Assembly (NCBI GenBank): GCA_039809865.1
Contig: JBDHVW010000005.1
Span: 10,671 to 74,670 of the forward strand
DNA: 64,000 nucleotides
DNA from: Vulcanimicrobiota bacterium
GTDB taxonomy: Bacteria > Vulcanimicrobiota > Xenobia > Xenobiales > QWHO01
Direction of reading: 5' to 3'
Shown here: positions 34,724 to 50,970 of the stretch, piece after piece
Numbering within the stretch: position 1 is the first letter of the stretch
How the letters are laid out: every line of letters starts with the position of its first letter
The notes under the pieces: model-generated
Seen by the model: only the letters and a program-made list of their open reading frames with translations
Databases searched by the model: none
What the model was told of the DNA's origin: nothing
Translations under genes and position numbers: made by a program

Positions 34724-35763
34724 GAAGCCTGCACCTTTCGCAAGATGGCCCGGCGCTTCTCCACCGGGGGATGGGTCTGTCCGCCCTGCAGGGCCGCGTC
34801 GCCGAAGCGCTGCACGCCGTATTTCTCGAGCTTGCCCAGCGCCTTGTCCAGTCCGTCGGGGTCGTAGCCGGCTCTGGCGGTCAGCTCGAGCCCTTTCAGG
34901 TCGGCATCGATCTCGTCGGCGTGATTGTATTCGCGCTCATGGTCCTGCTGGTAGCCGACGCTCTTGAGGCGGGCCTTGGCCGAGTCGACTCGCCGCCGCA
35001 CCGCGATCATCCGGTCTTTGTAGCGATCGGCGGCGTAGGGGTCACCGGCCTCCCGCTGATATTCGGCGTAGTACTTGTCGGCCAGCCGCTGGGCGTCTTC
35101 CAGCTCCTTGAGCGCCAGGTCGACCTGGTGGTCCTGGTCCGACTCGCGGAGAGTATGGCGCTCGGTGCCGTGGCAGATCTCATGGGCCAGCACTCCGGCC
35201 AGCTCGTCGTCCGTCAGGCCCAGCGCCAGCAGCGGCTCGGTCACGAACACGAATCCCTCGCCGATGGTAAAGGCGTTCGGCTCGTCGGCCTCCACCAGGT
35301 AGAAGTTCCAGGGGATGTTGCGCCCCGAGGCTTTGGCCAGCTTCTCGCCGATGCGCTTCACGCGGGCCGCGCTCTTGGTGTCGCGCGACTCGGGAAACAT
35401 GCGGAGAGCTTTGGCCAGGCTCCGCTCGGCGATGCGATACTCGTTGCTGGCCACGGGAGCGCCTGAAGCCGAGCTCGCCTGGCCGGCCGGATGCCGCAGG
35501 AAGGCGATGGAATCGCCCACGCGCGCATCGTAGACGCCGCGCAACGTGATGACGGCGCCCCCGGGAGTGACGCGGAGCACGGTGGCCTCGCCCAGCTTCT
35601 GAGCGCCCCGCGACACGGCCACGATATCCCCGGGGGCCAACGTGCCCGCGCACTGGACCCGGAAAACCCCGATGCCCGAGCGCTCCGGCGCAGTCACGCT
35701 GCCGGTCTGGGGGGAGGCCAACAGGCCGAACGAAATCCAGAGGCCCAGAATCAATCGCTTCAT
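34708..35763 (-). CDS. M48 family zinc metallopeptidase (secreted)
   Basis: About 351 aa from MKRLILGLWISFGLLASP. HEICHGTERH is an HExxH motif; an N-terminal beta-rich domain is followed by the peptidase domain. Confidence 0.8.
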   Translation of the reverse strand: MKRLILGLWISFGLLASPQTGSVTAPERSGIGVFRVQCAGTLAPGDIVAVSRGAQKLGEATVLRVTPGGAVITLRGVYDARVGDSIAFLRHPAGQASSASGAPVASNEYRIAERSLAKALRMFPESRDTKSAARVKRIGEKLAKASGRNIPWNFYLVEADEPNAFTIGEGFVFVTEPLLALGLTDDELAGVLAHEICHGTERHTLRESDQDHQVDLALKELEDAQRLADKYYAEYQREAGDPYAADRYKDRMIAVRRRVDSAKARLKSVGYQQDHEREYNHADEIDADLKGLELTARAGYDPDGLDKALGKLEKYGVQRFGDAALQGGQTHPPVEKRRAILRKVQASWRAR

Positions 35764-35836
35764 GAGAGCCAATTCTATTCGAGGCCGCCGGCCCCCCGCG
35801 TGCAAGATATTCAATCACGACCCCGAATCCCGACGG

Positions 35837-37954
35837 GTGGAGCTCATCGGCCTCGCCCCTTCCCGGCTGACCTTGCTGCGTTGCGAGTCGGCCCGGCTGC
35901 CGTTCCGGCCCACCCTGGTATTGACGCCGCGCGAGCTCGAGAAACTGGGCCGGCTGCTTCAGGAAGCCGCCGGGCAGTCCGCCGAGGTTTGCCTGGGGGC
36001 GCTGCCGGCCCGTCCGATGCGGCTCGAGGTCTGGTCCCGCCCTCCCCAGGTGGCCCTGGTTTTCTCGCAGCGCAACTGGCGCTTCGAGACCCCGGTCGGG
36101 TCGACCCTGGCCGCGGCGGCTCTCGAAGCTTCGGCCCGAGCGGCCGCAGAGCCCGTGGCCCCCTATCTCGCCGAGGTGGTCTCTCCCGAGGCCTGGTTCG
36201 TGCCCGGCCTGCCGGGCCCCGTGCCCAACCACGCTCTGTGCGCCTGTTTCGGGCCTTATGACGAGCCGCTTTCCCTCCCCGAGCTCGAGGCGGGCGAGCT
36301 GGCCTGGATCTGGCGCGGCCCCGACGACACGATCATGCGCATCGACCTGCGCGATCCGGCCCTGCCCGAGCTGCCGCCCGAGCCGCGACCCCTGCTGCAG
36401 CAAGACTACGCCGGCGTGCTCAAGCTGCTGGGACACGATACCGCGGGAACCTTGCTGCGCGCGCACTGCCTGGCCCGTCTGGGCGGGCCGGCCGACGAGC
36501 TGGACGCGGCCATGACCCGGCTCGTCAGCGAGCTCCACAATGCCCCTCCCAAGCTGTTGCGGATGGTGCTGGCCAACTGGCGCCAGGACCTGCTGCCGGG
36601 CGATTCCCTGGCCGCGTGGGAGGCTGCCTGCCAGCACTATGGCCGTCCGGTGGTGCCCGCCCACCTTTCGTTTCCACCCTTTCAGGAGAATGCTCCCGAG
36701 CCCGCGATCGTGCCTCGCCTGGAGGCCACCGGCCAGTGGCTGGACGACCGCTTCCTGTCCGCCCGGCGCTGGAGCGCTCTGCGCTCGGGTTATCTCAAGT
36801 TGTTGATGACCGTGCTGAAATACGGCGTGCTGGACCGCTTCTTGCTGGGGAAGAGCTTTCTGGGTCTGCTGCTGGTGGCCCACGGTCAGGGGCGCTCCGA
36901 GCAGGCCGGGCACCTGCTGGCCGGCCGCATCGCGGACCCGAGCCTGAAGCGCGCCCTGGACGTGGGCCGGGGCGCTTTGCGGGAGGGTCTTCTGCCCGAG
37001 GCCGACCAGTCGCTCTTCGACTTCCTGCGAGCCCGGTCAGGTCCCCTGGAGGGCTTTCCGCCCCCCGGCCCCTGGGAGCGCACTCCGACCTCCCTGGGTC
37101 CCATCCCGCTGAGCCACATGCCCCTGCCGAGCCTGGCCCCGCGCGCAGGCACGCCGCGAGGCGAGCTCGTCCACGGCCGCGAGCCGGTGGACGCCCTGGC
37201 CCTCGCGAGCTTCCTGGTCACCCGCAGTCGGGAGCGGATCTGTCTGTGGGACGCCCGGACGGGCGCGCGTCTGGGAGCGCTCGAGGGCGAGCGTCGCCTC
37301 CTGGGCCTGTCGGGCGACTATCTCTGGACCGCACGCACCGGGGAGATCGAGATCTGGCGCTGTCCCTCGCTGGTGAGCGAGCCGCCCCTCCAGTCTCTCG
37401 ACGCGCGCTGTCTCTCCGGCGACGGCTCCTGGATGGCCGGGATCTCCGACGGCAAGGTGGCCCTGCTCGACCTGGCCAGTCTCACCCTGCAGACTCTGGC
37501 TCACGCCAACCCTCACTCGCTGCTGGCGCTGAGCCACGACGGAGGTCTGCTGGCCGAGGCCGGCCCGGAGCAGCTGCACGTCTGGCACGTGGCCAGCGGC
37601 CGGCTGACCTTCGAGGCGCGCCTGGCAGCGACCGCCCTGCGTTTTCGCGGTCCGGTGCTGGTCTGTGGCGGCGCGGACGGGCGCGCCCTGCGCCTGGACT
37701 TCCGCCAGGGGGAGGAGGCCCACGCGGCCCTGGCGTTCACCCCTCTCCACTGCGTGGACAGCAGTCCTGACGGCCAGTTCCTGGCCGGTGGCCACGAGCG
37801 TGGCGTCGCGCTGGCCGACGTGATCCTGGGCGACACCTGCGCCCGTCTCGATTGCGAGCCCGCGAGCCTCGAGCTGGCCAGCCCGGACGCGCTCTGGGTA
37901 GGCCTGCGCGACGGCCGCGTGCGCCTCTACGACCTGGACCAGCCCTTTTACTGA
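35837..37954 (+). CDS. hypothetical protein with C-terminal WD40-like beta-propeller repeats
   Basis: The 770-aa 6-frame ORF would overlap the M48 gene start, so the start is placed at an internal GTG (uncertain). The C-terminal ~250 aa hold repeated ...DG..L..G..DG.V.LWD-type blades. Confidence 0.55.
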   Translation: MELIGLAPSRLTLLRCESARLPFRPTLVLTPRELEKLGRLLQEAAGQSAEVCLGALPARPMRLEVWSRPPQVALVFSQRNWRFETPVGSTLAAAALEASARAAAEPVAPYLAEVVSPEAWFVPGLPGPVPNHALCACFGPYDEPLSLPELEAGELAWIWRGPDDTIMRIDLRDPALPELPPEPRPLLQQDYAGVLKLLGHDTAGTLLRAHCLARLGGPADELDAAMTRLVSELHNAPPKLLRMVLANWRQDLLPGDSLAAWEAACQHYGRPVVPAHLSFPPFQENAPEPAIVPRLEATGQWLDDRFLSARRWSALRSGYLKLLMTVLKYGVLDRFLLGKSFLGLLLVAHGQGRSEQAGHLLAGRIADPSLKRALDVGRGALREGLLPEADQSLFDFLRARSGPLEGFPPPGPWERTPTSLGPIPLSHMPLPSLAPRAGTPRGELVHGREPVDALALASFLVTRSRERICLWDARTGARLGALEGERRLLGLSGDYLWTARTGEIEIWRCPSLVSEPPLQSLDARCLSGDGSWMAGISDGKVALLDLASLTLQTLAHANPHSLLALSHDGGLLAEAGPEQLHVWHVASGRLTFEARLAATALRFRGPVLVCGGADGRALRLDFRQGEEAHAALAFTPLHCVDSSPDGQFLAGGHERGVALADVILGDTCARLDCEPASLELASPDALWVGLRDGRVRLYDLDQPFY

Positions 37955-38703: not shown

Positions 38704-41043
38704 TTATTCGACCAGGTCCCGCTCCACGGCCCATTCCCGAACCGTGGCGATCTCGGCGGCGGTCAACTCGGTGCCGCCCGCCATCAGGCGCCGGGCGTCG
38801 TCGCGGACATAACTCAGGCCCAGGTGTAGCCCCAACCCGGCCGCCAGGCACTGCGGCCCGGAGGCGGCCGGCAGCGACTGCGACACGACCAGCACCCGAC
38901 GGTGCGCGTAATAGACGCCCGGACGGCCCAACGCCGAGCGGACGAAAAAGACGTTGAGCGCCCCCGGCTCGAACTCGGGCAGCTGCGTCAGCGGAATGCC
39001 GTTGGGCACCTCGGGCGGAGGTGGGAGCGCGCGCGCCAGCACAGCGTCCTGCACGGCGGTGGGGGCGGCCCCCACGACCTCGAAAGCCAGCCCGGCCGGG
39101 GCGAAGAACTGATTGGCGTAGGCCACGCAGGCCTCGAAGAACGCGACCGGCTGGTCCACCCCCGCCTGCCGGTGTACGACCAGGTGCAGCCGCAGCGGAA
39201 TGCGCATCGGGGCCAGCGCGCACTCGGCGGGCGGAAGGTGCAGCATGAGCCTCTGCAGGCCCTGCACGCGCAGCGAGGCGCACTCGTCCGGGGTCAGCCG
39301 GGTGCCGCGGAAGCTGTTGCGGGCCAGGAGCCGCTCGGGCGGAGCATCGACGAAGCGGGCGCCCATCTGCGTGGCCAGCGTCAGCGCCAGGCACGAGCCG
39401 GCGCTGGGCACGGACTCGCTGACCAGGGTCACGCCCGGCGTCAGGTAAGCCACCCCCACCTGCAGACTGCCCGTCGCCCGGTTGCGGATCTCTTTGACGT
39501 AGAACAGGTTGTGAGCCATCGCATCGAACTCGGGCAGCAGGGTGAGGGGCGCGCCGTCGGGCGCGCTCGTGCCCGACGGCAGCACCTGCGAGAGCAGCGC
39601 GTCGCTGAGCCGGGTCTCGCTCCAAGATTGGATCTCGGCCTGGATGCCCGCCGGGGCCAGAATCGCGTTGGCGGAGCGCACGGCCTCCTCCAGCTCGCGC
39701 CTTGTGCGCGTGGCGCCGACCTCCGCGTGGCCCACGCGGTGGATGCGCAGCGGCAGGCGCAGCGTCCAGCGGTCGACGGGCTCGGGCGGGCCGAGCAGAC
39801 GCGCGGCGCGCTGGCGGGCCCAGCGCACGTCGTCCGGGCTCAGCTGGGTGCCCGGCTCGGGGAAGTTGGTCAACCGCTGCGGCGCGCCCTGGCTGGGAGC
39901 CAGCCCCAGGATCAGCCCCAGGCCCAGGGCCAGCCAGCGCTCGGATGCGTCGTGCGCCAGCAAGAGGATGCGCTCCGCCGGGTAGGCCACCATGGGCAGC
40001 GTGCGCACGGTGCCGCGCAGGGGCAGAAACGTGGCCCGGTAGAGGTTGATGCCCCGCGAATGATACCCCGCCGAGCGCCGGAGCGGACCGCAATCAGCCA
40101 GCGGAGCCTGGCTCTCGGGCTCGCGCGGGCAGGCGCGCTCGAGCGAGCCCGGCCCGGCCCCATAGCCGACCAGCTCGAACCCGATTCCGGCGGCTTTCCA
40201 CAACTCGTTGGCCCGGGTCAGGAGAGCCGCCAGCCCCTGCCCGCCGTCCAGCTCGACACCATACACCGGCAGGCGCAGCTCGGTGGCCGGGGGAGCGGGA
40301 GGGCTGGCGGCGCTGGCCGGAGAGCGAGGGTGCCAGGCCAGGAGGGGCGGCTCGAGGTCCCTGGGGCGCAGCTCCGGCGGCAGGGCGTCCAGGTCCGAGA
40401 CCATCGGACCGGCAGTCTCCGGCTCCACCACCGCCATCAAAGGGCGCTCGGGCAGGGCCGGGTCGTCGGGCCCGTGCGACTCGGAGAGTTTGGGCCCCGG
40501 CCTGAACTCGGCCCGCATGAGCCCGGCCAGCAGGCGCGAGTCGTCCAGCAACGCGGCCCGCGGCTCCTCTCTTGGAGGGGGCTCCGGACGGGCCTCGGGA
40601 GCGGTTTCCTGGGGCGTCAACCCGGCCAGGTCCAGCAGGCACCGGGCGATCAGCTCGACCTCGTTGCCGTCCAACTCGTCCGGCACCAGCGCCAGCTGCT
40701 GGAGCTTGTGCGGCACCAGCGCGTGATGAGGAGCGCCGCTCACCTGGCCGCCGATGGCCAGGATCTCGCTGGTGAAGAACAGGTTCATCGCCTGATGGTC
40801 GAACGCCGGCAGATTGGCCAGCCCCAAACCGTTGGGACGCCGCCGCGACGAGCGAATGCGCGGGTCGTTGGGGAACGCGTCATGCAGGGCCCCGATCGGC
40901 ACCGGGTCGTCGCGCACGCCGACGAGCTCGACCTCCAGGTTGGAGGGGAGATAGCGCCAGGTCGCCTTCAGCAGCGCCTCGACGTCCTCGGGCGCGCGGC
41001 TGGTGGCAGCCAGGTGAGCGACGACCGGAATCGTTACGGCCAC
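38704..41043 (-). CDS. hypothetical protein (779 aa) with four internal divergent repeats
   Basis: Natural composition, whereas the alternative frames 38699..40093 (-) and 38902..41823 (+) are R/G/A-rich. The repeated module is PxGxPLTxLPEFDxxAxNLF(F/Y)V (ANLPAFDHQAMNLFFTSE; LTLLPEFDAMAHNLFYVKE; LTQLPEFEPGALNVFFVRS; plus the degenerate INLYRATFLP). It lies 3 bp downstream of an acyl-CoA dehydrogenase gene. Confidence 0.6.
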   Translation of the reverse strand: MAVTIPVVAHLAATSRAPEDVEALLKATWRYLPSNLEVELVGVRDDPVPIGALHDAFPNDPRIRSSRRRPNGLGLANLPAFDHQAMNLFFTSEILAIGGQVSGAPHHALVPHKLQQLALVPDELDGNEVELIARCLLDLAGLTPQETAPEARPEPPPREEPRAALLDDSRLLAGLMRAEFRPGPKLSESHGPDDPALPERPLMAVVEPETAGPMVSDLDALPPELRPRDLEPPLLAWHPRSPASAASPPAPPATELRLPVYGVELDGGQGLAALLTRANELWKAAGIGFELVGYGAGPGSLERACPREPESQAPLADCGPLRRSAGYHSRGINLYRATFLPLRGTVRTLPMVAYPAERILLLAHDASERWLALGLGLILGLAPSQGAPQRLTNFPEPGTQLSPDDVRWARQRAARLLGPPEPVDRWTLRLPLRIHRVGHAEVGATRTRRELEEAVRSANAILAPAGIQAEIQSWSETRLSDALLSQVLPSGTSAPDGAPLTLLPEFDAMAHNLFYVKEIRNRATGSLQVGVAYLTPGVTLVSESVPSAGSCLALTLATQMGARFVDAPPERLLARNSFRGTRLTPDECASLRVQGLQRLMLHLPPAECALAPMRIPLRLHLVVHRQAGVDQPVAFFEACVAYANQFFAPAGLAFEVVGAAPTAVQDAVLARALPPPPEVPNGIPLTQLPEFEPGALNVFFVRSALGRPGVYYAHRRVLVVSQSLPAASGPQCLAAGLGLHLGLSYVRDDARRLMAGGTELTAAEIATVREWAVERDLVE

Positions 41044-43023: not shown

Positions 43024-43055
43024 AAAAAAAAGCGCCCCGCGTTCCGCGAGGCGCC
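43024..43055 (-). terminator. rho-independent terminator (for the minus-strand secreted protein gene ending at 43078)
   Basis: The plus strand reads AAAAAAAA-GCGCCCCGCG-TTCC-GCGAGGCGC, so on the minus strand the hairpin is followed by a U8 tract. Confidence 0.6.
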
Positions 43056-43077
43056 TTCTGCCCGAGACAGCGACTTC

Positions 43078-43677
43078 TTAGAAGCCGGTCTTGGGATTGA
43101 CGTTCCACTGGATGTTGTTGAACTTGCGCTCTTCCGTCACCTTGGAGCCGTCGACTTTCTGCGAGTGCACGATCGTGCCATCGTCGGTCGCCCAGACCTT
43201 GCAGCCGTTCGAGAAGGTGAACAGCGTGGTGGCCTGGCCCTTGTAGCTGTCGCCGGCGCTGACCTTGGGGGCGCTGCTGCCACAGTCCTTGATGATCAGG
43301 CCGAAAACGCTCTGGTAGAGGGAGGTGCCGGCCACATCTTTGTGGTCCAGGCTGCGCTTGATCTGGCCGCTGCCGACGCGGGCGACGACCTGGTTGGCGT
43401 TCTCAGAGCTGTTGAAAACGGTGACCGCACCCACGCGATCCTGGCTGCCCGGCAGCACCTTCGTGCGGACCGACAGCGGGTTGTTGATGCAGGCATACTC
43501 GAAATTGTACTTGCCTTTGGGGCCGACATACTCATAGGTGCAGGAATAATCCTTGGCTCCGGCCACCTTGGCTTTGACGGCATCCCAGGTCGTTGCGGCC
43601 TGACTCGTCGAGGCGTTGAGCAGAATAGCGCTCAGGACCCCCATGGCCATAGCGACGAACTTCGTGCGGAATTTCAT
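43078..43677 (-). CDS. secreted hypothetical protein (199 aa, Lys-rich, beta-rich)
   Basis: Signal peptide (MKFRTKFVAMAMGVLSAILLNASTSQA) and its own AGGAG RBS. Last gene of the tatD / tubulin-like / cyclase operon, followed by a terminator. Confidence 0.65.
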   Translation of the reverse strand: MKFRTKFVAMAMGVLSAILLNASTSQAATTWDAVKAKVAGAKDYSCTYEYVGPKGKYNFEYACINNPLSVRTKVLPGSQDRVGAVTVFNSSENANQVVARVGSGQIKRSLDHKDVAGTSLYQSVFGLIIKDCGSSAPKVSAGDSYKGQATTLFTFSNGCKVWATDDGTIVHSQKVDGSKVTEERKFNNIQWNVNPKTGF

Positions 43678-43719
43678 TCTGGTTTCTCCTAACTCCTTGG
43701 GAAAATGCCGGTCCGAGTT

Positions 43720-45276
43720 CTACGACGCGTTCGTAGATCCTTCGAACGGGTCGACCACGAAGATCTTGACGTCGTACTCGGGCCAATACTCTTCGCGGGC
43801 GACCACCGGTCTAACCGGCAAGCGACCCAGAGTGTTTTCGGTCAGGCAAATTTCCCGGGCTCCCGCCCCTTTTTGCACTTTGCCGGCCACGTCCAGCGTG
43901 TAATCGTAGAGGTTGCGGGTTTGGGACGCGTCGCCCAGGTCGCGCGTGAGCACCTTGCCGCTGTTCACGCCGATGCGCACCTCCAGGCCCATCTCCAGGC
44001 GGTTGTGACGGCGGTTGAAGGCGCCCAGGTGGAGCTGGATCTCCCGACAGCATTCCACCGCATCCTGGGCCGAGTCGAAGACCGCCATGGTGCCATCCCC
44101 GGCCGCGTCCTTGACGTGGCCTTTGTGGCGCCGCACCAGGTTGCCCACATACTCGTGATACTGCTGGAACGTGTAGGTCACGTTGACTTTGTCCTGATTC
44201 TGCTTCAAGCGGGTGGAGTCGACCACGTCCAGGCAGACCGCGGTGCATTCGCGGCCCTCCGAAACGGGCGCCGACACGCTCTCGGGCGCACCCACCAGCT
44301 CTTTGTACATCGCGTTGCGGATGCGGCAATTGCCGTCCTTGTCGGCTTTGATCAGCCCGATCAACTCGAGGCGCGCCAGACGAGGATTGGTCATGCGGTT
44401 GAACTTGATCTTCTCGCCCACCAGCACGCGGTCGAGCCAGGGACGCAGCTCGGGCTCGCTCTCCAGGCGGTGCACCACGTGGTCGAGGTTGTTGCAGTCG
44501 CTCATAATCTCGCGCACGGCGCGCGCGACCACCTCGGGGCCGCCGACCGGAATGCGCCAGCCGGCCAGCACGGAGCAAAGGCGCTGGGTCAGGTAGGGCT
44601 GACCTTCCGTCCAGCGATAGATCTCGTCGGGAACGTCCTCGGCGGTGGCGATTCCCAGGCGCTCGAGCAGCGTCACCAGCTTGCGCACGCCGTCGCGCGT
44701 CAGGTCGGTCATGCGCAGGGTCTTGGAGACGTTGAAAGGCGAGTTGGCCTGGTTCTTGATCAGGTCGCGGGGCGAGAACGTGCCGCAGAGGACGAAGGAC
44801 ATCCTGGCAAACTCGGGCTTGACCTGGCGATTGGAGAACACGTAGCGCACGTTGCCGAAGAACGCGTCGGTAAACTCCTCGGGCACCGAGCCGACCTCGT
44901 CGAGCATCAACACGACCCGTCCCAGGGCGCCGCCCAGCGCGCGCAGGTAGTTCAAGAACTCGAGGTGCGTCGCGGGCATTTCCGAGGGGCCGCCAATTTG
45001 CTCATGGATCGTGGTGGCGATGTAGCGGTACCACGACGGTAGCGGCTCCTCGCGGGCGGCCGAGAGGTCCACATAGGCGATCGCGTAGCCCTGGGGCGCC
45101 AGCTTGTGGCGAACCCGGTAGAGAAGGCTCGTCTTGCCCATCTGGCGCGGGCCGATGACGGTGACGAAGTCGCCCGCCGCCAGGTGCTCGGGCAACTTCT
45201 CGTCCTCGATCCGATCGCAGTAGGCGGCCGAGTCCGGCCGCAGATTCCCGCCCCAGTGAAACAGGTCAGCCTCCAT
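43720..45276 (-). CDS. AAA-like ATPase fused to class III adenylyl/guanylyl (nucleotidyl) cyclase domain
   Basis: 518 aa. The N-terminal domain has Walker A GPRQMGKTSLL and Walker B VLMLDEVGS. The C-terminal ~180 aa carry CHD cyclase motifs (AVCLDVVDSTRL...HKGHVKDAAGDGTMAVF...RIGVNSGKV). AAGGAG RBS; the start overlaps the upstream giant gene stop by 11 nt. Confidence 0.75.
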   Translation of the reverse strand: MEADLFHWGGNLRPDSAAYCDRIEDEKLPEHLAAGDFVTVIGPRQMGKTSLLYRVRHKLAPQGYAIAYVDLSAAREEPLPSWYRYIATTIHEQIGGPSEMPATHLEFLNYLRALGGALGRVVLMLDEVGSVPEEFTDAFFGNVRYVFSNRQVKPEFARMSFVLCGTFSPRDLIKNQANSPFNVSKTLRMTDLTRDGVRKLVTLLERLGIATAEDVPDEIYRWTEGQPYLTQRLCSVLAGWRIPVGGPEVVARAVREIMSDCNNLDHVVHRLESEPELRPWLDRVLVGEKIKFNRMTNPRLARLELIGLIKADKDGNCRIRNAMYKELVGAPESVSAPVSEGRECTAVCLDVVDSTRLKQNQDKVNVTYTFQQYHEYVGNLVRRHKGHVKDAAGDGTMAVFDSAQDAVECCREIQLHLGAFNRRHNRLEMGLEVRIGVNSGKVLTRDLGDASQTRNLYDYTLDVAGKVQKGAGAREICLTENTLGRLPVRPVVAREEYWPEYDVKIFVVDPFEGSTNAS

Positions 45277-48200
45277 TCGCCATCATCTCCTTGTAGAGGT
45301 CCACGCCCTCGCGAACATCCATCACCTGGGCCACCATCTCGGGGAAGGAGCGCACCGCCAGGTGGTAGCGTGGACCATGCCGCTCGAGCAAGCCATAGAG
45401 ACAGAGGTTGTCCAGGGACTCCACCAGCTCGGGCAGGCTCAGCTTGACGTCGTAATCGGCCTCCAGGCGTTTTCGTAAATCCTGGGCGGTGATCTCCTCG
45501 TCCGTCTCGAGGGTCAGCGAGGCGATCCGCTCGCGCATCCCGCCCGATCCCCACAGCGTTTCCAGGTATTCCTCGGCGAAGAGCTGGTCGGTGAGCACCT
45601 CGCGCAAGAGGTCGGTGGAGATCTGACGCGTCCGCTCACGGTTGAGGCGATCGACCAGCACGCTGCAGGCCCGCTGCACCAGGTTGGGATGCCCGGCGGA
45701 AACGTAAAGCAGCATCTCCAGCGCCGCCTGGCGGTCGTCGAAGCGAACCTCCATCTGCTCTAAGGGCTCCGTGATCAGGTTCGTGGCCTCTTCGGCGCTC
45801 AAAAAGCCCAGTTTCATGGCGTGGCTGAAATTGAAAAACGCGGAGTCGGCCTGGTGCAGCTTATGGTGCAGGGTGCGCTCGCCACAAAGGAGGAAGCTGG
45901 CCTTCCCCTCGGTGGCGGCCTGGCGGAACGAGCGCCCCAAGAACTCGGAGTTTTGCGGGTCCTGCGCCAGCATCAGGTCGATCTCGTCGAGGATGATCAG
46001 GGCCTGGCGGCCCTCGTGGCGGTGCTGGAGCTCCATCAGGATGGCCGGAAAGCTCATCTTGGGCTCCCAGTTGGGGAGGTGCTCGGCCGCCAGCGTCATC
46101 AGGAAGTCCGAGCCTTTGGAGAGCGCCTGGCAGTCGAGATAGAAGACGGGCCGGTCCTGCTTGCGCAGGGAGCTCAGCACCCGCTGCAGCACCGAGGTCT
46201 TGCCTACCCGCCGGGGCCCCACCAGGGCCACGTTGCTGTGATCGAGCCGGTAGTGGATCTCCTTGATCACGCCCTCGCGCCCGTAGAACATCGAGGCGGG
46301 CACCGGTCCCTCCGTCACGAAGGGCGACACCACCGTGAGATCGACCTGCTCGAGCACGCGCCGCACCAGTTGGGACAGGCGGTTCTTCTCGCGCATGATG
46401 GCCTTGAGGTCGTCGGGGGTGAGCGCAATGATGTCGTAACGCAGCAAGCTGGACAGTCCCTCGGACAAAAGGGCGCGGTTGGCCTCTTTGTCGCCGGTCA
46501 CGAGCAGGAACCCGAACCGGTTGTCCTGGCCGACCTGCTCGAGCAAATTGCGCAGGTTGGCCACATCTTGCGGACCCATCAGGGGCCGCAGGCATGCCAG
46601 GAAGGGAATGGTGGAGGGGATGCGGATGCGGAGCCCGTGGGTCTCCACCAGCCGGCCCCAGATCGTCCCCAGGCCGAGGGGGCGCCCGGGCGTGAAACCG
46701 AGCGTCTGGCAGCAGAAGTCGATGATCTCGCCGGCCGCGCGGGCGAAGACGTCCGGATCCATCTCCTGGCTTTCCACCAGGCGCCGGATATCCGCGTCGA
46801 GGTGGGAGAGGTCGCGGGCCGAAACCAGCTCCAGGCGCCCGGCGCCGGGGTGGAAAGCCAGGTTCTCGCCCGGGTGCGTGAGCTCATAGCGCTGCATGGC
46901 CCAGCGGCGATAGCCGGCCGGGATCTGGACCAGGTCGGCCTCGGAGAGGCTGGGCGCGTGCTTGAGATAGCTCGCCAGCAAGGGCTCCCATTCCTGCCAG
47001 GATTGCTCGAGCTGCAGGCGCAGACGGCGCGCGGCCTGATGCAGCCAGGGCTCGAGGTCCACCCCCAGCAGCATGCGCCCGGACCCGGCCATCCTGTCCT
47101 CGCTGAGCTCGAGCTGCTTGAGATAGCCCTCCACTCCTAACTCGTCCAGTTTCTCCTCCTGCCAGCGCGCCAGCGAGATGAGCAGCGTGCTCTGGGTGAG
47201 CAGACCCTCCTCGATGTCGTGGAAGAGGTAGAGGCACGAGATGACCGGCGTCATGTCGGGCCAGCGCAGGCTCTCCAGCGTGTCGCCGGCCTCGAGGTGG
47301 CCGAGCCGGACGGCTGCGGCCAGCGTTTCCCAGACCCGCTCGCGCTCGTAGTCGGAGGGGCGCGACAGAGCTCGCCAGCGCACGTCGGTGCGCGAATGAG
47401 GAGCGACTTTGGCGCCTTTCAGCTCGTTGAGGTAGGACGAATGCAGCGGACCGAGCTCGAGAGCCCGCAGCGGAAAGCCCCCCGTGACGCGCAAGAAGAC
47501 CATGCGCTCGCGGGTCAAGAACGGCACCACGCTCAGGGTCAACTCTTGCTGCAGCAAGAACTCGGCCAGCTTCTGATGGCCGGGCGTCTCCTCGCCGGGC
47601 GCGGCGTGGACGGCGACGAAGGCCACCTCCTGGCCGTGGCCCCAGCCTTCCAGCTGCTGGCGCGGCTGCAGCGCCGGCCGGGCGCGCAGGAAGAGCTGCT
47701 TGAGCTGCTCTTCGGCGGCCGCGCCGCGATAGCGCTGGAAGAACTGATCCACCGCGTCGATCCCCTCCAGGCCCCCCAGGTGGCGCGCCACCGCGCCCAC
47801 CAGGGCCGAGACGGCCTCGCGAGGCTTGTAGCGCGCCGGCAGCTCGATGGGCTCCACGTTGAGCTCGTCGCGCACCCAGCGCGGCGCTTTCTCGATCTTC
47901 TTGTCGCTGGCCCGGTCGGCCAGAAAGTCGTTGACCTCGGTGCGGCTCAGCAGCACCTCGCCGGGCACCGAGAAGACCTGGCCCATCGCCTGGTTGTGCT
48001 GGTCGTGGAAGAGCTTGCCCAGCGTGGTCAGGTATTCGAACAGGGTAGTGGTGTCCGAGCGGAACCTTTCGACCAGCAGCAGCAGCTCCTGAAAGGCGTT
48101 CCAGGCCTCGCGGTGGATGTGAAGCACGAGCCGGCTGGAGTAGAACCGCTCGATCAGCTCCAGGGCCGGGGGGGTGGTCGACAGGCCTTTCTTCTTCTTG

Positions 48201-49675
48201 AAGACGCTCTTGCTGGCCGCCGCCGTCTCGAGCTGGCGCAGCGTCTGATCCTTCTCCTGCAGCAGGCGCAGCTCGTCGAGCTCGAGCTGGGACATCTCCT
48301 CGTAGAGCGTGCGCAGGCGGTCGCCCACCGCGTCGGAGAGCTGCTCGAGGTAAGCGGCGTAGCCCAGAGTGCGCTCGGCCCGAAAAAAGGCGTTGACTTC
48401 GTCGGTGAGGGCGGCCGTGCCACGGGCCGCCAGCTCGGCCGCACGGGCGGAGACCTTGCCGAACAGCCCGTCGGGTTTGTTCTCTCCCAGAGCGCGCAGG
48501 ATGGCCTCTTCCAGCACCCGCAGTTTGGCGGCCAGCGCGGCGCCCTGAGGCGGCTTTCGCTCGAGCTGCTCGCGCACGGCGGTCACCTCGCGGTCGTGGC
48601 GGAAGGCGGTCGGGCCGCCGGCCGCGTTGGTCAGCTCCTCCACGAACACGTGACGGGCCAGGGCTTCGCGATGCAAGAACTCCAGCGCCACTTTGGGCGT
48701 CTTGTCGGGCTCCTCGGCACCCCGCGTAATGGCGGCCTGCCAGCGCTCGGTCAGCTGGTTGAGAATGCGTGAGGCCAGCGCGGTGCGGATCTCGTCGAAG
48801 GGCAGCGAAAGCGAGGACGACGCCTGGCTGAAGTAGGTCACCGGGTTGCCCCGCTCGTCGACCTGGTGGGAAAACGCGTTCTGGCGGCGCGCGACCTCGG
48901 TGGCCAGGGGCCGGTAGGGCTCCCACAGCGGCAATCCCAGGTAGGCGGTGACCTGGAGGCCAAGAGCCTCGCGCTCGTGGGCGTCCTCGAGGTCGCGGCA
49001 GCTGAACATCACCACCCGGTCGTACGGGGCCTGGTCGGTCTCAAACGTCAATCCGCCGGGAATGCTGATGCTGTAGGTCGTGTCGGGGGCCTGCCAGTGG
49101 TTGAGCTCGATCAGCGCGGCATAGGGATTCGAGGCCCCGCGTTCGTGGCGCGCGGGCCGGGCCGAGCTGACCAGCACGGCTTCCACGACGGCCTCGGAGC
49201 CGGGCCGCAGCTGCTCGATCAGACCGCGCAACAAGAAGGGCAGCTCGCACAGCAGCACGCCGCCCGTGCCGCCGGCCAGGGAGCCGACCAGCGTGACGTG
49301 CACGGCCCCGTCCTCCAGCACCTCCGTCAGCAACGGATTGAGCCAGGCCGCCAGCACGCTGTAGTTGGTCAGGAAGACGAGTCGCCCCAGCATGCGGATG
49401 GCGCCGCAGCCCGAGCGACGCAGCTCGGGGCGGACCCCCGGCGGAACCAGGCGCTCCCAGATACCGGCGTCCAGGAGCAGCTTCTCGGACGGCTGCAGGT
49501 TGAGCTGGTGGCTCAGAATTTGCTTGCCCGCCAGCATGCTCAGGCTGGCCTTGTCGCTGTCGATGGCGGCGCACACCATGCGGGAGGCGGCCAGCCGGCC
49601 CGACAGCACGTCGCAGGCCTGCCCTACCAGGGCGGTGCCCAGGCCACCCAGACCGAGAATGAGGTGACCGCTCAC
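45266..49675 (-). CDS. giant multidomain protein: N-terminal FtsZ/tubulin-like GTPase domain, long helical middle region, C-terminal AAA-like ATPase
   Basis: 1469 aa. The N-terminus has ILGLGGLGTALV (G-box 1), AIDSDKASL (compare FtsZ AVNTDAQAL) and SLAGGTGGV (compare the tubulin/FtsZ GGGTGSG T4 loop). The C-terminus has Walker A VGPRRVGKTSVL and Walker B ALIILDEIDLM, paralogous to the ATPase of the downstream cyclase gene. ATGA overlap with upstream tatD. Confidence 0.75.
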   Translation of the reverse strand: MSGHLILGLGGLGTALVGQACDVLSGRLAASRMVCAAIDSDKASLSMLAGKQILSHQLNLQPSEKLLLDAGIWERLVPPGVRPELRRSGCGAIRMLGRLVFLTNYSVLAAWLNPLLTEVLEDGAVHVTLVGSLAGGTGGVLLCELPFLLRGLIEQLRPGSEAVVEAVLVSSARPARHERGASNPYAALIELNHWQAPDTTYSISIPGGLTFETDQAPYDRVVMFSCRDLEDAHEREALGLQVTAYLGLPLWEPYRPLATEVARRQNAFSHQVDERGNPVTYFSQASSSLSLPFDEIRTALASRILNQLTERWQAAITRGAEEPDKTPKVALEFLHREALARHVFVEELTNAAGGPTAFRHDREVTAVREQLERKPPQGAALAAKLRVLEEAILRALGENKPDGLFGKVSARAAELAARGTAALTDEVNAFFRAERTLGYAAYLEQLSDAVGDRLRTLYEEMSQLELDELRLLQEKDQTLRQLETAAASKSVFKKKKGLSTTPPALELIERFYSSRLVLHIHREAWNAFQELLLLVERFRSDTTTLFEYLTTLGKLFHDQHNQAMGQVFSVPGEVLLSRTEVNDFLADRASDKKIEKAPRWVRDELNVEPIELPARYKPREAVSALVGAVARHLGGLEGIDAVDQFFQRYRGAAAEEQLKQLFLRARPALQPRQQLEGWGHGQEVAFVAVHAAPGEETPGHQKLAEFLLQQELTLSVVPFLTRERMVFLRVTGGFPLRALELGPLHSSYLNELKGAKVAPHSRTDVRWRALSRPSDYERERVWETLAAAVRLGHLEAGDTLESLRWPDMTPVISCLYLFHDIEEGLLTQSTLLISLARWQEEKLDELGVEGYLKQLELSEDRMAGSGRMLLGVDLEPWLHQAARRLRLQLEQSWQEWEPLLASYLKHAPSLSEADLVQIPAGYRRWAMQRYELTHPGENLAFHPGAGRLELVSARDLSHLDADIRRLVESQEMDPDVFARAAGEIIDFCCQTLGFTPGRPLGLGTIWGRLVETHGLRIRIPSTIPFLACLRPLMGPQDVANLRNLLEQVGQDNRFGFLLVTGDKEANRALLSEGLSSLLRYDIIALTPDDLKAIMREKNRLSQLVRRVLEQVDLTVVSPFVTEGPVPASMFYGREGVIKEIHYRLDHSNVALVGPRRVGKTSVLQRVLSSLRKQDRPVFYLDCQALSKGSDFLMTLAAEHLPNWEPKMSFPAILMELQHRHEGRQALIILDEIDLMLAQDPQNSEFLGRSFRQAATEGKASFLLCGERTLHHKLHQADSAFFNFSHAMKLGFLSAEEATNLITEPLEQMEVRFDDRQAALEMLLYVSAGHPNLVQRACSVLVDRLNRERTRQISTDLLREVLTDQLFAEEYLETLWGSGGMRERIASLTLETDEEITAQDLRKRLEADYDVKLSLPELVESLDNLCLYGLLERHGPRYHLAVRSFPEMVAQVMDVREGVDLYKEMMANGG

Positions 49676-50433
49676 AACGGGCCGAAGAGGGAGGCGGCGG
49701 CGGCGCTGGTGGCGCGGGCCACTTCTTCAGGGTCGAGCCCGCGCAGCTCGGCGACCTTGCGCGCCATCAGGGGCACGTAACCCGGCTCGTTGCGCTTGCC
49801 TCGGTAAGGAATCGGGGCGAGGTAGGGGCCGTCGGTCTCGAGCAGCAGGCGGTCGAGAGGGGCCTGCCGCGCCACTTCGTGCACTTCGTGCAGCTTGGGA
49901 AAGGTGACCATGCCGGTGACGCCCACGTAAAAACCGAGCTGCAGGAATTTCTGGGCCCAGTCCCAGCCGCCCGTGAAGCAATGGACCACGCCCCGAACCC
50001 CGCCCTGACGGCACTCTTCGTAGAGCGCCTCCTCGGCCTCGCGGCAGTGCAGGATTACGGGTTTGTCCACCTTTCGGGCCAGCTCGAATTGCTGGCGCAG
50101 GCAGCGGAACTGCTCCTCGGGCGTGGCGAAATCGTAGTGGAAGTCGAGCCCGATCTCGCCGATCGCGACGGCCTTGCCGGCCAGCTGCTCGAGCTCGGTC
50201 AGGCAGTCGGAGCTCCAGGCCTTCGCCTCGTGGGGGTGCACGCCCACGGCCGCCCGGATGCGGTCGTCGCGCTCGCTCATTCGCACGATCTGGCGCGCCG
50301 AATCCATTTGCGTGGCCGGGGCGATGACGCGTTCCACCCCCGCTTGCGTGGCGCGATCGAGCACGGCCTCCCAATCGGCCGAATAGGCCTCGGCATCCAG
50401 GTGAATATGGGTGTCGACCAGCACGGTCAGCAT
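49672..50433 (-). CDS. tatD: TatD family metal-dependent hydrolase/DNase
   Basis: About 253 aa from MLTVLVDTHIHLD. TatD motifs are present (VGVHPHEA; AIGEIGLD; ILHCREA; VHCFTGG; LLETDGPYL). Its stop overlaps the start of the giant gene. Confidence 0.85.
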   Translation of the reverse strand: MLTVLVDTHIHLDAEAYSADWEAVLDRATQAGVERVIAPATQMDSARQIVRMSERDDRIRAAVGVHPHEAKAWSSDCLTELEQLAGKAVAIGEIGLDFHYDFATPEEQFRCLRQQFELARKVDKPVILHCREAEEALYEECRQGGVRGVVHCFTGGWDWAQKFLQLGFYVGVTGMVTFPKLHEVHEVARQAPLDRLLLETDGPYLAPIPYRGKRNEPGYVPLMARKVAELRGLDPEEVARATSAAAASLFGPL

Positions 50434-50572
50434 GCTTCGGGTGTCTGCGAAGTTTTGCCTTTCCGGACGCCCCCGCCAGCCTCCCACACACCTGTTCGGA
50501 AGGTGCGAAGGAAATTCTTCAAGTCGGGAAGAATTTTCCTCGTCTGACGACTGGGAAAGGAGGAGGGATGTC

Positions 50573-50848
50573 ATGGGTCGGGCGGCTCGCGAGCATAGCT
50601 CGGCAGAACCGGTACGCCGTTTGCGGCGCAGCGTCGAGGGTTTCGAGAAGAAGACCCGGGCGGCGACTCCGCAGCGGTCCAAGACCCGTTCGGCCCGAGC
50701 CAAATCACGTCCCTCGAAGTCCCGAGCGTTGCCCTGGCGCCTTCTCCTGGTGCTGGGGCTGATCCTGATGGTGGGCTCCACCGTCTGGACGATCGTCCAC
50801 TCGCCAACGAAACGCCCCCCCTTATCCCATAGCAAATCGTCCCGTTAG
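50573..50848 (+). CDS. putative small basic protein with C-terminal transmembrane anchor
   Basis: 91-aa ORF (MGRAAREHSS...ALPWRLLLVLGLILMVGSTVWTIVHS...) preceded by a strong AAGGAGG RBS 9 nt upstream. Intergenic location between tatD and the amidase; unverified. Confidence 0.35.
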   Translation: MGRAAREHSSAEPVRRLRRSVEGFEKKTRAATPQRSKTRSARAKSRPSKSRALPWRLLLVLGLILMVGSTVWTIVHSPTKRPPLSHSKSSR

Positions 50849-50970
50849 GGGTTGAGAGTCGAGAGTTAAGAGTATCGCTGCGAAACTCTAAACTCTGAGC
50901 CCTCAATTCTCGACCGAACAGAGAAACACGATACCGGGGTTCCCTGTCTGATTCGCGGAAGGAGTGAAGG

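Follow-up and report, generated by a model that had tools for sequence, protein, structure and literature searches.

The window described here is a stretch of 64,000 nucleotides (nt) from a Vulcanimicrobiota bacterium (contig JBDHVW010000005.1, positions 10,671 to 74,670; coordinates below are window positions unless a locus is named). Its minus strand carries four co-directional genes: tatD, a "giant" gene whose predicted product joins a tubulin/FtsZ-like GTPase domain to a C-terminal ATPase, a gene for an ATPase fused to a class III nucleotidyl cyclase (the cyclase gene), and a small gene for a putative exported protein. On the evidence of their sequences, the giant and the cyclase gene are a conserved, translationally coupled pair, and this pair is one variant of a general two-gene input/output cassette built on paired ATPases. 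The module is real and conserved, and it falls within the known world of STAND-like, effector-swapping NTPase systems, in which its tubulin-like input is unusual. On balance we favor, with moderate confidence, the reading that these two genes are the functional unit, a paired-ATPase switch that would convert a variable input into a variable output and would have a domesticated signaling role in this lineage.

The cyclase gene (43720-45276, minus strand; 518 amino acids, aa) starts inside the end of the giant gene (45266-49675, minus strand; 1469 aa), and the overlap of 11 nt (45266-45276, minus strand), with a Shine-Dalgarno-like AAGGAG upstream, is a translational-coupling junction. Homologues of the giant were found only in metagenome-assembled genomes of Candidatus Xenobia / UBP9 (Eremiobacterota), and mapping the six proteins of the window onto 26 loci gave five arrangements, clades A to E. 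In clade A (the window and L004/5), bacA and amiC point away from the series tatD, giant, cyclase gene and small gene. Clade B, with a giant about 60% identical, has tatD, the giant and the small gene, the cyclase being cleanly absent. In clade C ("Xenobium", giant 38-40% identical), where amiC also occurs at the locus, the giant and cyclase genes have neither tatD nor the small gene beside them; clade D (L010/11) has the giant, cyclase and small genes between unrelated flanks, and clade E (L012/13) has a STAS gene, tatD, the giant, the cyclase gene and htrA, with amiC divergent. Additionally, a further lineage (L114) has the cyclase gene followed by the small gene, and L030 has the giant and cyclase genes but lacks tatD, amiC and the small gene. 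Giant and cyclase genes were found side by side, with the identical 11-nt overlap, in clades A, C, D and E and in L030, including the loci with unrelated flanks, so that the neighborhood check proposed in the preliminary description of this DNA came out in favor of the pair in every clade that has the cyclase. The geometry of the overlap, (A/G)TGGARRCTRR, was read in the window, L004, L006, L010, L012, L018, L020, L021 and L024, and the upstream Shine-Dalgarno-like element (AAGGAG or AAAGAG) was the same in every locus examined. This constancy indicates that the pair is conserved down to 33% giant identity and across differing contexts. Furthermore, the cyclase protein is 55-63% identical between clades, compared with 42-52% for amiC, 48-51% for bacA and 48% for tatD, and most clades keep amiC and bacA in synteny with the giant. 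Four records (L015, L016, L020 and L024) are labeled "Burkholderiales" and one protein (P0010) "Nitrosotenuis", though they carry this Xenobia-specific locus; the conserved synteny suggests that they were mis-binned or mislabeled. In one Xenobium contig (L008:11326-19517), an inserted block that encodes a tyrosine integrase and a serine resolvase lies directly downstream of the pair and displaces the genes found there in sister contigs.

The N-terminus of the giant (aa 1-330; 48686-49675, minus strand) is a tubulin/FtsZ-like GTPase domain of the FtsZl1/Tubulin_2 type. Residues 87-308 match Tubulin_2 in Pfam (E 2.9e-19, 70 bits against a cutoff of 27), and the T1 (GLGGLG) and T4 (AGGTGG) nucleotide-binding glycine motifs are present. 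The domain is also predicted to adopt a tubulin/FtsZ fold, in agreement with the preliminary description, in a model of moderate confidence (predicted local distance difference test, pLDDT, 62) that rests on five close sequences; a word-indexed homologue search with the N-terminal alignment returned nothing, probably swamped by glycine-rich words. It is followed by a fast-evolving middle region (aa 331-880; 47036-48685, minus strand) with no Pfam match, by a conserved pre-ATPase domain (aa 881-1125; 46301-47035, minus strand) that has no Pfam model and travels with the ATPase in a wider family, and by a C-terminal P-loop ATPase, the "gC" module, with a helical, winged-helix-like tail (aa 1126-1469 and stop; 45266-46300, minus strand). 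Between clades, identity is 24-32% in the tubulin domain, 25-36% in the middle region, 47-55% in the pre-ATPase domain and 45-55% in the C-terminal unit. The ATPase matches AAA_22 (aa 1147-1273, E 8.5e-12) and, more weakly, AAA_35, NACHT, ATPase_2 and nSTAND2 (aa 1130-1312); its Walker A (GPRRVGKTS) and Walker B (ILDEID) sequences lie in the motifs GPRRVGKTSVL and LIILDEID, and the Walker residues are invariant across the giant-type ATPase family. In the pre-ATPase domain, conserved columns lie upstream of a QVDLTxVSPFV motif in 43 unrelated proteins. One protein, P0057 (1522 aa), bears the unit of about 590 aa formed by this domain, the ATPase and the helical tail (giant aa 877-1469) twice, which indicates that the unit begins near giant residue 877 and takes in the domain without a Pfam model. 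A Tubulin_2 (FtsZl1) paralogue of 901 aa without the ATPase unit was found in Xenobia (L022:7980-10685 and L023:8001-10673), adjoining a CLC chloride channel gene, cysH and cysNC. It aligns with the middle region as well as the N-terminus of the giant (36% identity over giant aa 2-958) and occurs in the same genomes; the giant thus looks like a duplicate of it that gained a C-terminal ATPase unit. In one giant orthologue (P0006, L003:8001-12272), the deposited gene call is 36 codons late, since homology including the T1 glycine loop reaches 7893.

The cyclase protein begins with an AAA_35/Arch_ATPase-type ATPase and its helical lid, the "cyc-type" module (aa 10-325; 44302-45249, minus strand), and ends with a class III nucleotidyl cyclase domain (aa 343-486; 43819-44250, minus strand), the fusion that had been proposed. 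The AAA_35 match (E 2.8e-22) is accompanied by Walker A (GPRQMGKTS) and Walker B (MLDEVG) sequences, within the motifs GPRQMGKTSLL and VLMLDEVG, that are invariant across the cyc-type family, and by a fold like that of PAB2304/SSO1545; the closest structures are the archaeal Arch_ATPases 2qen and 2fna, and the neighbors include the NB-ARC domains of NLR proteins, CED-4 and EfAvs5. This module is homologous to that of the giant (25% identity over 238 aa, E 1e-11), so both proteins do carry paralogous ATPases with the motifs first reported for them. The cyclase domain matches Guanylate_cyc (E 9.6e-13) and has the cyclase-homology-domain fold. In 13 homologues neither of the metal-binding aspartates, D350 and D394, varies, and both align to those of Ma1120. 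In place of the canonical Asn/Arg motif stands an invariant DYTLDxxGKxQK, in which T460, D462 and K466 are invariant and on whose register alignments differ. Cyclase activity is plausible, with a product that cannot be predicted from these features. The fold is nearer to ordinary adenylyl/guanylyl cyclases than to solved Pycsar cyclases, which score lower, and the PycC models of PADLOC match part of the domain weakly (E 9e-10).

An exhaustive phmmer search with the last 374 residues of the giant placed the pair in a wider context. The giant-type module was found in 5490 proteins at E<=1e-3 and in 428 at E<=1e-30; the best 150 matches listed are proteins of 350-2000 aa that, apart from rare exceptions such as P0092, carry it at their C-terminal end or close to it. 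The N-terminal partners in 43 of them include nSTAND1/2/6, NACHT, HEAT, TPR, Sortilin/BNR, TIR_2, caspase and EAD7 domains, to which single scans of six proteins added CHAT and WD40; beyond the Xenobia set, Tubulin_2 was found, among the proteins scanned, only in P0065, a distant giant-like protein. Among non-cyclase proteins, the nearest relatives of the ATPase of the cyclase protein, P0023 and P0024, are themselves encoded a short way downstream of a NACHT-HEAT protein of 1512-1530 aa that ends in a giant-type module, with an AAA_35-Trans_reg_C gene in between. These cassettes of three or four genes (L027:1912-9293 and L029:2199-9356), running from NACHT-HEAT/giant-type to AAA_35-Trans_reg_C to a second AAA_35 protein, continue into a possible effector, a CHAP peptidase that bears Ricin lectin repeats. 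Metagenome contigs, which carry no taxonomy, were then scanned with an alignment of giant-type modules only, and all open reading frames (ORFs) of the 80 closest loci among 225 confirmed matches, most of them 29-36% identical to the window, were scored with two home-made hidden Markov models, one per ATPase type. Of the 83 giant-type modules in these loci, 65 had at least 1.2 kb of downstream DNA, and a same-strand cyc-type ATPase came next in 48 of them (74%, to be read as an estimate because the set contains near-duplicates, L067/L068 and L103/L107, with L075 and L081 from one contig, and samples only the closest loci), the match beginning -19 to +99 nt from where the upstream ORF ends. An AAA_35 match was obtained for each of the 39 partners examined. 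Their outputs were SpoIIE in seven (four with GAF), TIR in seven, caspase in four, CHAT in three and SIR2 in two, and single cases of patatin, Mrr nuclease, trypsin, EAD7, a Death-like domain, DUF4062, OmpR-type DNA binding (Trans_reg_C) and cyclase. We define the cassette by a giant-type C-terminus followed on the same strand, within about 100 nt, by a cyc-type AAA_35 gene, and the pair of the window falls under this definition by its 11-nt overlap. Since the same two ATPase families are adjacent in most of these unrelated loci, the pair belongs to the general cassette, and the proposal that paralogous ATPases couple the two proteins is strengthened. One contig (L081:5767-8301) has both modules in a single ORF, an apparent gene fusion, and tandem cassettes, two per contig, occur on several contigs (L075, L081 and L083). 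PADLOC and NCBIfam recognize the output domains only and not the cassette, and PADLOC 2.0 has no named matching system; matches of PADLOC PDC-S01 and NCBIfam DS8 to the P-loop regions were too weak and were not used. A plasmid collection gave no match to the ATPase module of the giant, and in viral contigs nothing beyond weak P-loop matches (23-24% identity) turned up.

Class III cyclases must dimerize to be active, and TIR, SIR2, caspase-like proteases and class III cyclases are all activated by induced proximity. The switch that we favor would work as follows. The first gene would supply a variable N-terminal input region with the conserved ATPase module at its end, and the second a related AAA_35/Arch_ATPase module followed by a variable output enzyme; in the Xenobia version, the FtsZl1 tubulin-like GTPase and the long helical region would be the input and the class III cyclase the output. 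A change of state in the tubulin-like part, by GTP-dependent assembly or by binding of a ligand or partner, could license an ATP-dependent co-oligomerization of both related ATPase modules, which would gather the cyclase domains and switch on the output enzyme by proximity. Because of the dimer requirement, cyclase domains brought together in this way would yield a cyclic-nucleotide signal, to be read by a receptor encoded elsewhere. As to its purpose, we favor a domesticated role in stress, envelope-state or infection signaling over a mobile defense gene, because the cassette is in Xenobia a fixed, vertically inherited chromosomal module. The fixed position, the high conservation, the housekeeping neighborhood, the failure to find an adjacent receptor and the lack of matches on plasmids or viral contigs point to lineage-fixed signaling.

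Several observations weigh against this interpretation. Clade B keeps the giant and the small gene and has lost the cyclase, which indicates that the giant can function without it. No cyclic nucleotide monophosphate (cNMP) receptor was found near the pair by a low-sensitivity tblastn search with CRP and Pfam scans of the ten nearest genes. The 74% pairing frequency is an estimate, the N-terminal model of the giant has only moderate confidence, and the missing Asn/Arg transition-state motif makes both the activity and the product of the cyclase uncertain. The interaction between the ATPases and the ATPase, GTPase and cyclase activities are predictions. In addition, FtsZl1 proteins have no recognizable T7 loop (PMC2875224), which makes polymerization uncertain.

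The alternative that survives best, to which we give an appreciable but minor chance, is an anti-phage abortive-infection system in which the giant would sense infection, the cyclase would signal and a remote effector would kill or arrest the cell in a Pycsar-like manner. The effector repertoire of the cassette family points to conflict: relatives bear TIR, SIR2 (ThsA/Dsr-like), caspase, CHAT, patatin, Mrr nuclease and Death-like domains, and their N-terminal partners include NACHT, EAD7 and repeat sensors. The weak PycC matches and the fast evolution of the tubulin part next to conserved enzymatic parts are in line with this. However, many outputs of the family are regulatory (SpoIIE with GAF, OmpR-type DNA binding), a cNMP-binding effector was not found next to the pair and none of the named PADLOC systems matches. 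The locus is, moreover, syntenic with amiC/bacA across the class, among housekeeping genes and with a cyclase protein more conserved than those neighbors, and its ATPase module was not found on plasmids or viral contigs. Somewhat less likely still is a broader proposal, that the cassette is a widespread, unrecognized class of immune/signaling switch in which the Xenobia tubulin GTPase would be the sensor and would raise a cyclic-nucleotide alarm. This sensor could be a GTP-dependent filament serving as the template on which the ATPase-cyclase assembles, or an integrated decoy of the division/cytoskeletal tubulin, reporting on phage or stress factors that attack FtsZ-like polymers. If true, no earlier second-messenger system would have been gated by a tubulin, and FtsZl1 would gain its first functional handle.

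In Avs, bNACHT and STAND transcription regulators, a single chain contains the sensor region, a P-loop switch that oligomerizes, and the effector or output that assembly turns on. The pair of the window shows the same sensor-switch-output logic, and the structural neighbors of its ATPase include members of this world (NLR NB-ARC, CED-4 and EfAvs5). In contrast to these single-chain STAND/NLR proteins, the function here appears to be split over two genes with two paralogous ATPases, both with intact Walker motifs, and the switch is C-terminal in the sensor protein and N-terminal in the effector protein. A two-gene logic with two ATPases and variable effectors is shared with the nSTAND2 operon, whose two STAND-core products are predicted to form a hetero-multimer, one of them fused to variable effectors (Kaur et al. 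2021, PMC8195603). In that operon catalysis is eroded in one partner and most effectors are GT4 or HEPN (PMC8195603), whereas here Walker A/B are retained in both ATPases and TIR, SIR2, caspase, CHAT, SpoIIE or cyclase domains serve as effectors; furthermore, the giant scores 15.3 bits against the nSTAND2 cutoff of 24 and the cyclase protein has no match. GTPase-centric conflict systems of the GAP1-N2 type include tubulin genes and have cNMP cyclases among their outputs (Kaur et al. 2020, PMC7159879). The giant resembles them in being a tubulin-superfamily protein with a helical extension in a predicted NTP-dependent, effector-deploying system, but their GAP1, DO-type GTPase, FNIII and vWA proteins were not found among the genes checked here, and their tubulin is a separate gene instead of being fused to a STAND-like ATPase. 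With Pycsar the window shares a class III-fold cyclase as predicted signal generator; unlike Pycsar, it has no adjacent cNMP-binding effector that we could find, the gene after the cyclase encoding an exported protein without a domain match. None of the four proteins matches CD-NTase, the CBASS enzyme, in Pfam, NCBIfam or PADLOC. The likeness to Pycsar and CBASS drawn in the preliminary description does not, in this light, amount to membership: Pycsar, CBASS and Qat each fail on defining features. Menshen and the EACC1 system were checked and are unrelated. No published description or name was found in the searchable literature for the cassette or for the tubulin-ATPase fusion, including under AAA_35, tubulin-like defense and paired STAND operons, a negative that amounts to no more than absence of evidence; the author of the preliminary description was likewise not aware of a described system with this architecture.

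In Pfam, the FtsZ-like proteins of Makarova & Koonin are represented by the Tubulin_2 model (PMC9871819). FtsZl1 is among them a widespread multidomain family with a coiled-coil and helical extension (Makarova & Koonin 2010, PMC2875224), predicted to act in membrane remodeling (PMC2875224). The giant is like FtsZl1 in its N-terminal divergent tubulin/FtsZ GTPase with T1/T4 motifs, its long helical region and its presence over and above ordinary division genes, and unlike it in its added C-terminal unit of about 590 aa and in having an ATPase-cyclase as partner. In keeping with the original proposal for FtsZl1, the giant could be a cytoskeletal or membrane/cell-envelope remodeling factor tied to amiC and bacA, with the cyclase as a regulatory add-on. 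We regard this as improbable, even though most clades retain bacA and the AMIN-amidase gene amiC in synteny with the giant, and a gene for an exported protein is co-transcribed with it. Synteny inside one class is weak functional evidence, and L010 and L030 keep the pair without amiC/bacA. In addition, none of the usual FtsZl1 partners (vWA, divergent GTPase/GAP1-type, kinase and OmpA) was found when the ten nearest window genes and those called in related loci were checked, and the ATPase pairing ties the giant to an input/output switch family instead. As far as the literature searched shows, no experimentally tested function of FtsZl1 has been reported since its description in 2010. Here an FtsZl1 protein is fused to an ATPase switch and translationally coupled to an enzyme whose product would be easy to measure, so the role of a non-division bacterial tubulin becomes directly testable. 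The comparison also exposes a general two-gene architecture, abundant in metagenomes, in which an ATPase-ended input protein is followed by an ATPase-output protein and which swaps TIR, SIR2, caspase, CHAT, patatin, phosphatase, DNA-binding and cyclase outputs. If it serves defense or regulated suicide, it would add a split two-ATPase relative of NLR-like immunity; if regulatory, it would be a new family of signal transducers.

A still less credible alternative, very improbable in our view, is a four-gene system in which TatD would be the nuclease effector of an operon of tatD, giant, cyclase and secreted-protein genes. The tatD gene (49672-50433, minus strand; Pfam TatD_DNase E 5e-80) encodes a housekeeping-type TatD/YchF-family hydrolase. 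Its stop overlaps the start of the giant by 4 nt, GTGA, the giant having a GTG start codon that is supported because orthologues begin MSGH; the coordinates and the 4-nt and 11-nt overlaps first given for the four genes hold, but this junction is not the ATGA that had been quoted. The overlap, the adjacency of tatD and giant in clades A, B and E and a weak QatD-like match speak for such a system. However, the protein scores 249 bits with the housekeeping model TIGR00010 (cutoff 206) and only 85.4 bits with QatD (cutoff 230) in NCBIfam, PADLOC gave no matches to the partners QatA-C, tatD is not beside the pair in clades C and D and L030, and no TatD was found at any of the 83 cassette modules elsewhere. 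Thus, tatD is a housekeeping gene that probably shares a transcript with the giant and is not part of the module, contrary to what had been suggested. Finally, a coincidental adjacency of giant and cyclase genes, inherited synteny without a functional link, is strongly disfavored: all giant homologues found do come from one bacterial class with syntenic flanks and one subclade is without the cyclase, yet the overlap geometry is kept at 33-41% giant identity and in differing genomic contexts, and unrelated loci, whose fused domains are entirely different, pair the same two ATPase families.

The small gene (43078-43677, minus strand; 199 aa) had been put forward as a possible further component. 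It follows the pair, or the giant alone, in four lineages (clades A, B and D and L114; 38-82% identity) and is absent in clades C and E, so that the exported protein is a lineage-specific companion of the pair and a possible accessory. By inspection, the protein has a Sec-type signal peptide (MKFRTKFVAMAMGVLSAILLNASTSQA|AT); it has no match in Pfam, NCBIfam, PADLOC or, by sequence, the PDB. The gene has its own ribosome-binding site (AAGGAG/AGGAG, 8 nt upstream of the ATG) and is followed by an intrinsic terminator (43024-43064, minus strand) read from the sequence as a GC-rich hairpin and U8 (-31 kcal/mol, z -2.67), both as originally noted. The consensus terminator scanner missed this hairpin; the promoter/terminator scan gave no convincing promoter, and an Rfam scan of the whole window returned no matches.

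All four ORFs show the GC bias at third codon positions (GC3) of real genes in this 67% GC sequence, and the neighbors of the locus are housekeeping genes (Pfam, ten nearest genes). A tblastn search of the window with an approximate E. coli CRP query, which has low sensitivity, found no CRP-like cNMP-binding domain. The divergent region between amiC and tatD (50434-50970) is 537 bp long and yielded neither a sigma-70-like promoter nor an Rfam element, and the tatD frame remains open upstream as far as a TTG at 50835. Further away, two large ORFs of 770 aa (35642-37954, plus strand) and 779 aa (38704-41043, minus strand) have strong coding GC3 bias, and Pfam gave for them a single weak beta-propeller match, in the 770-aa ORF.

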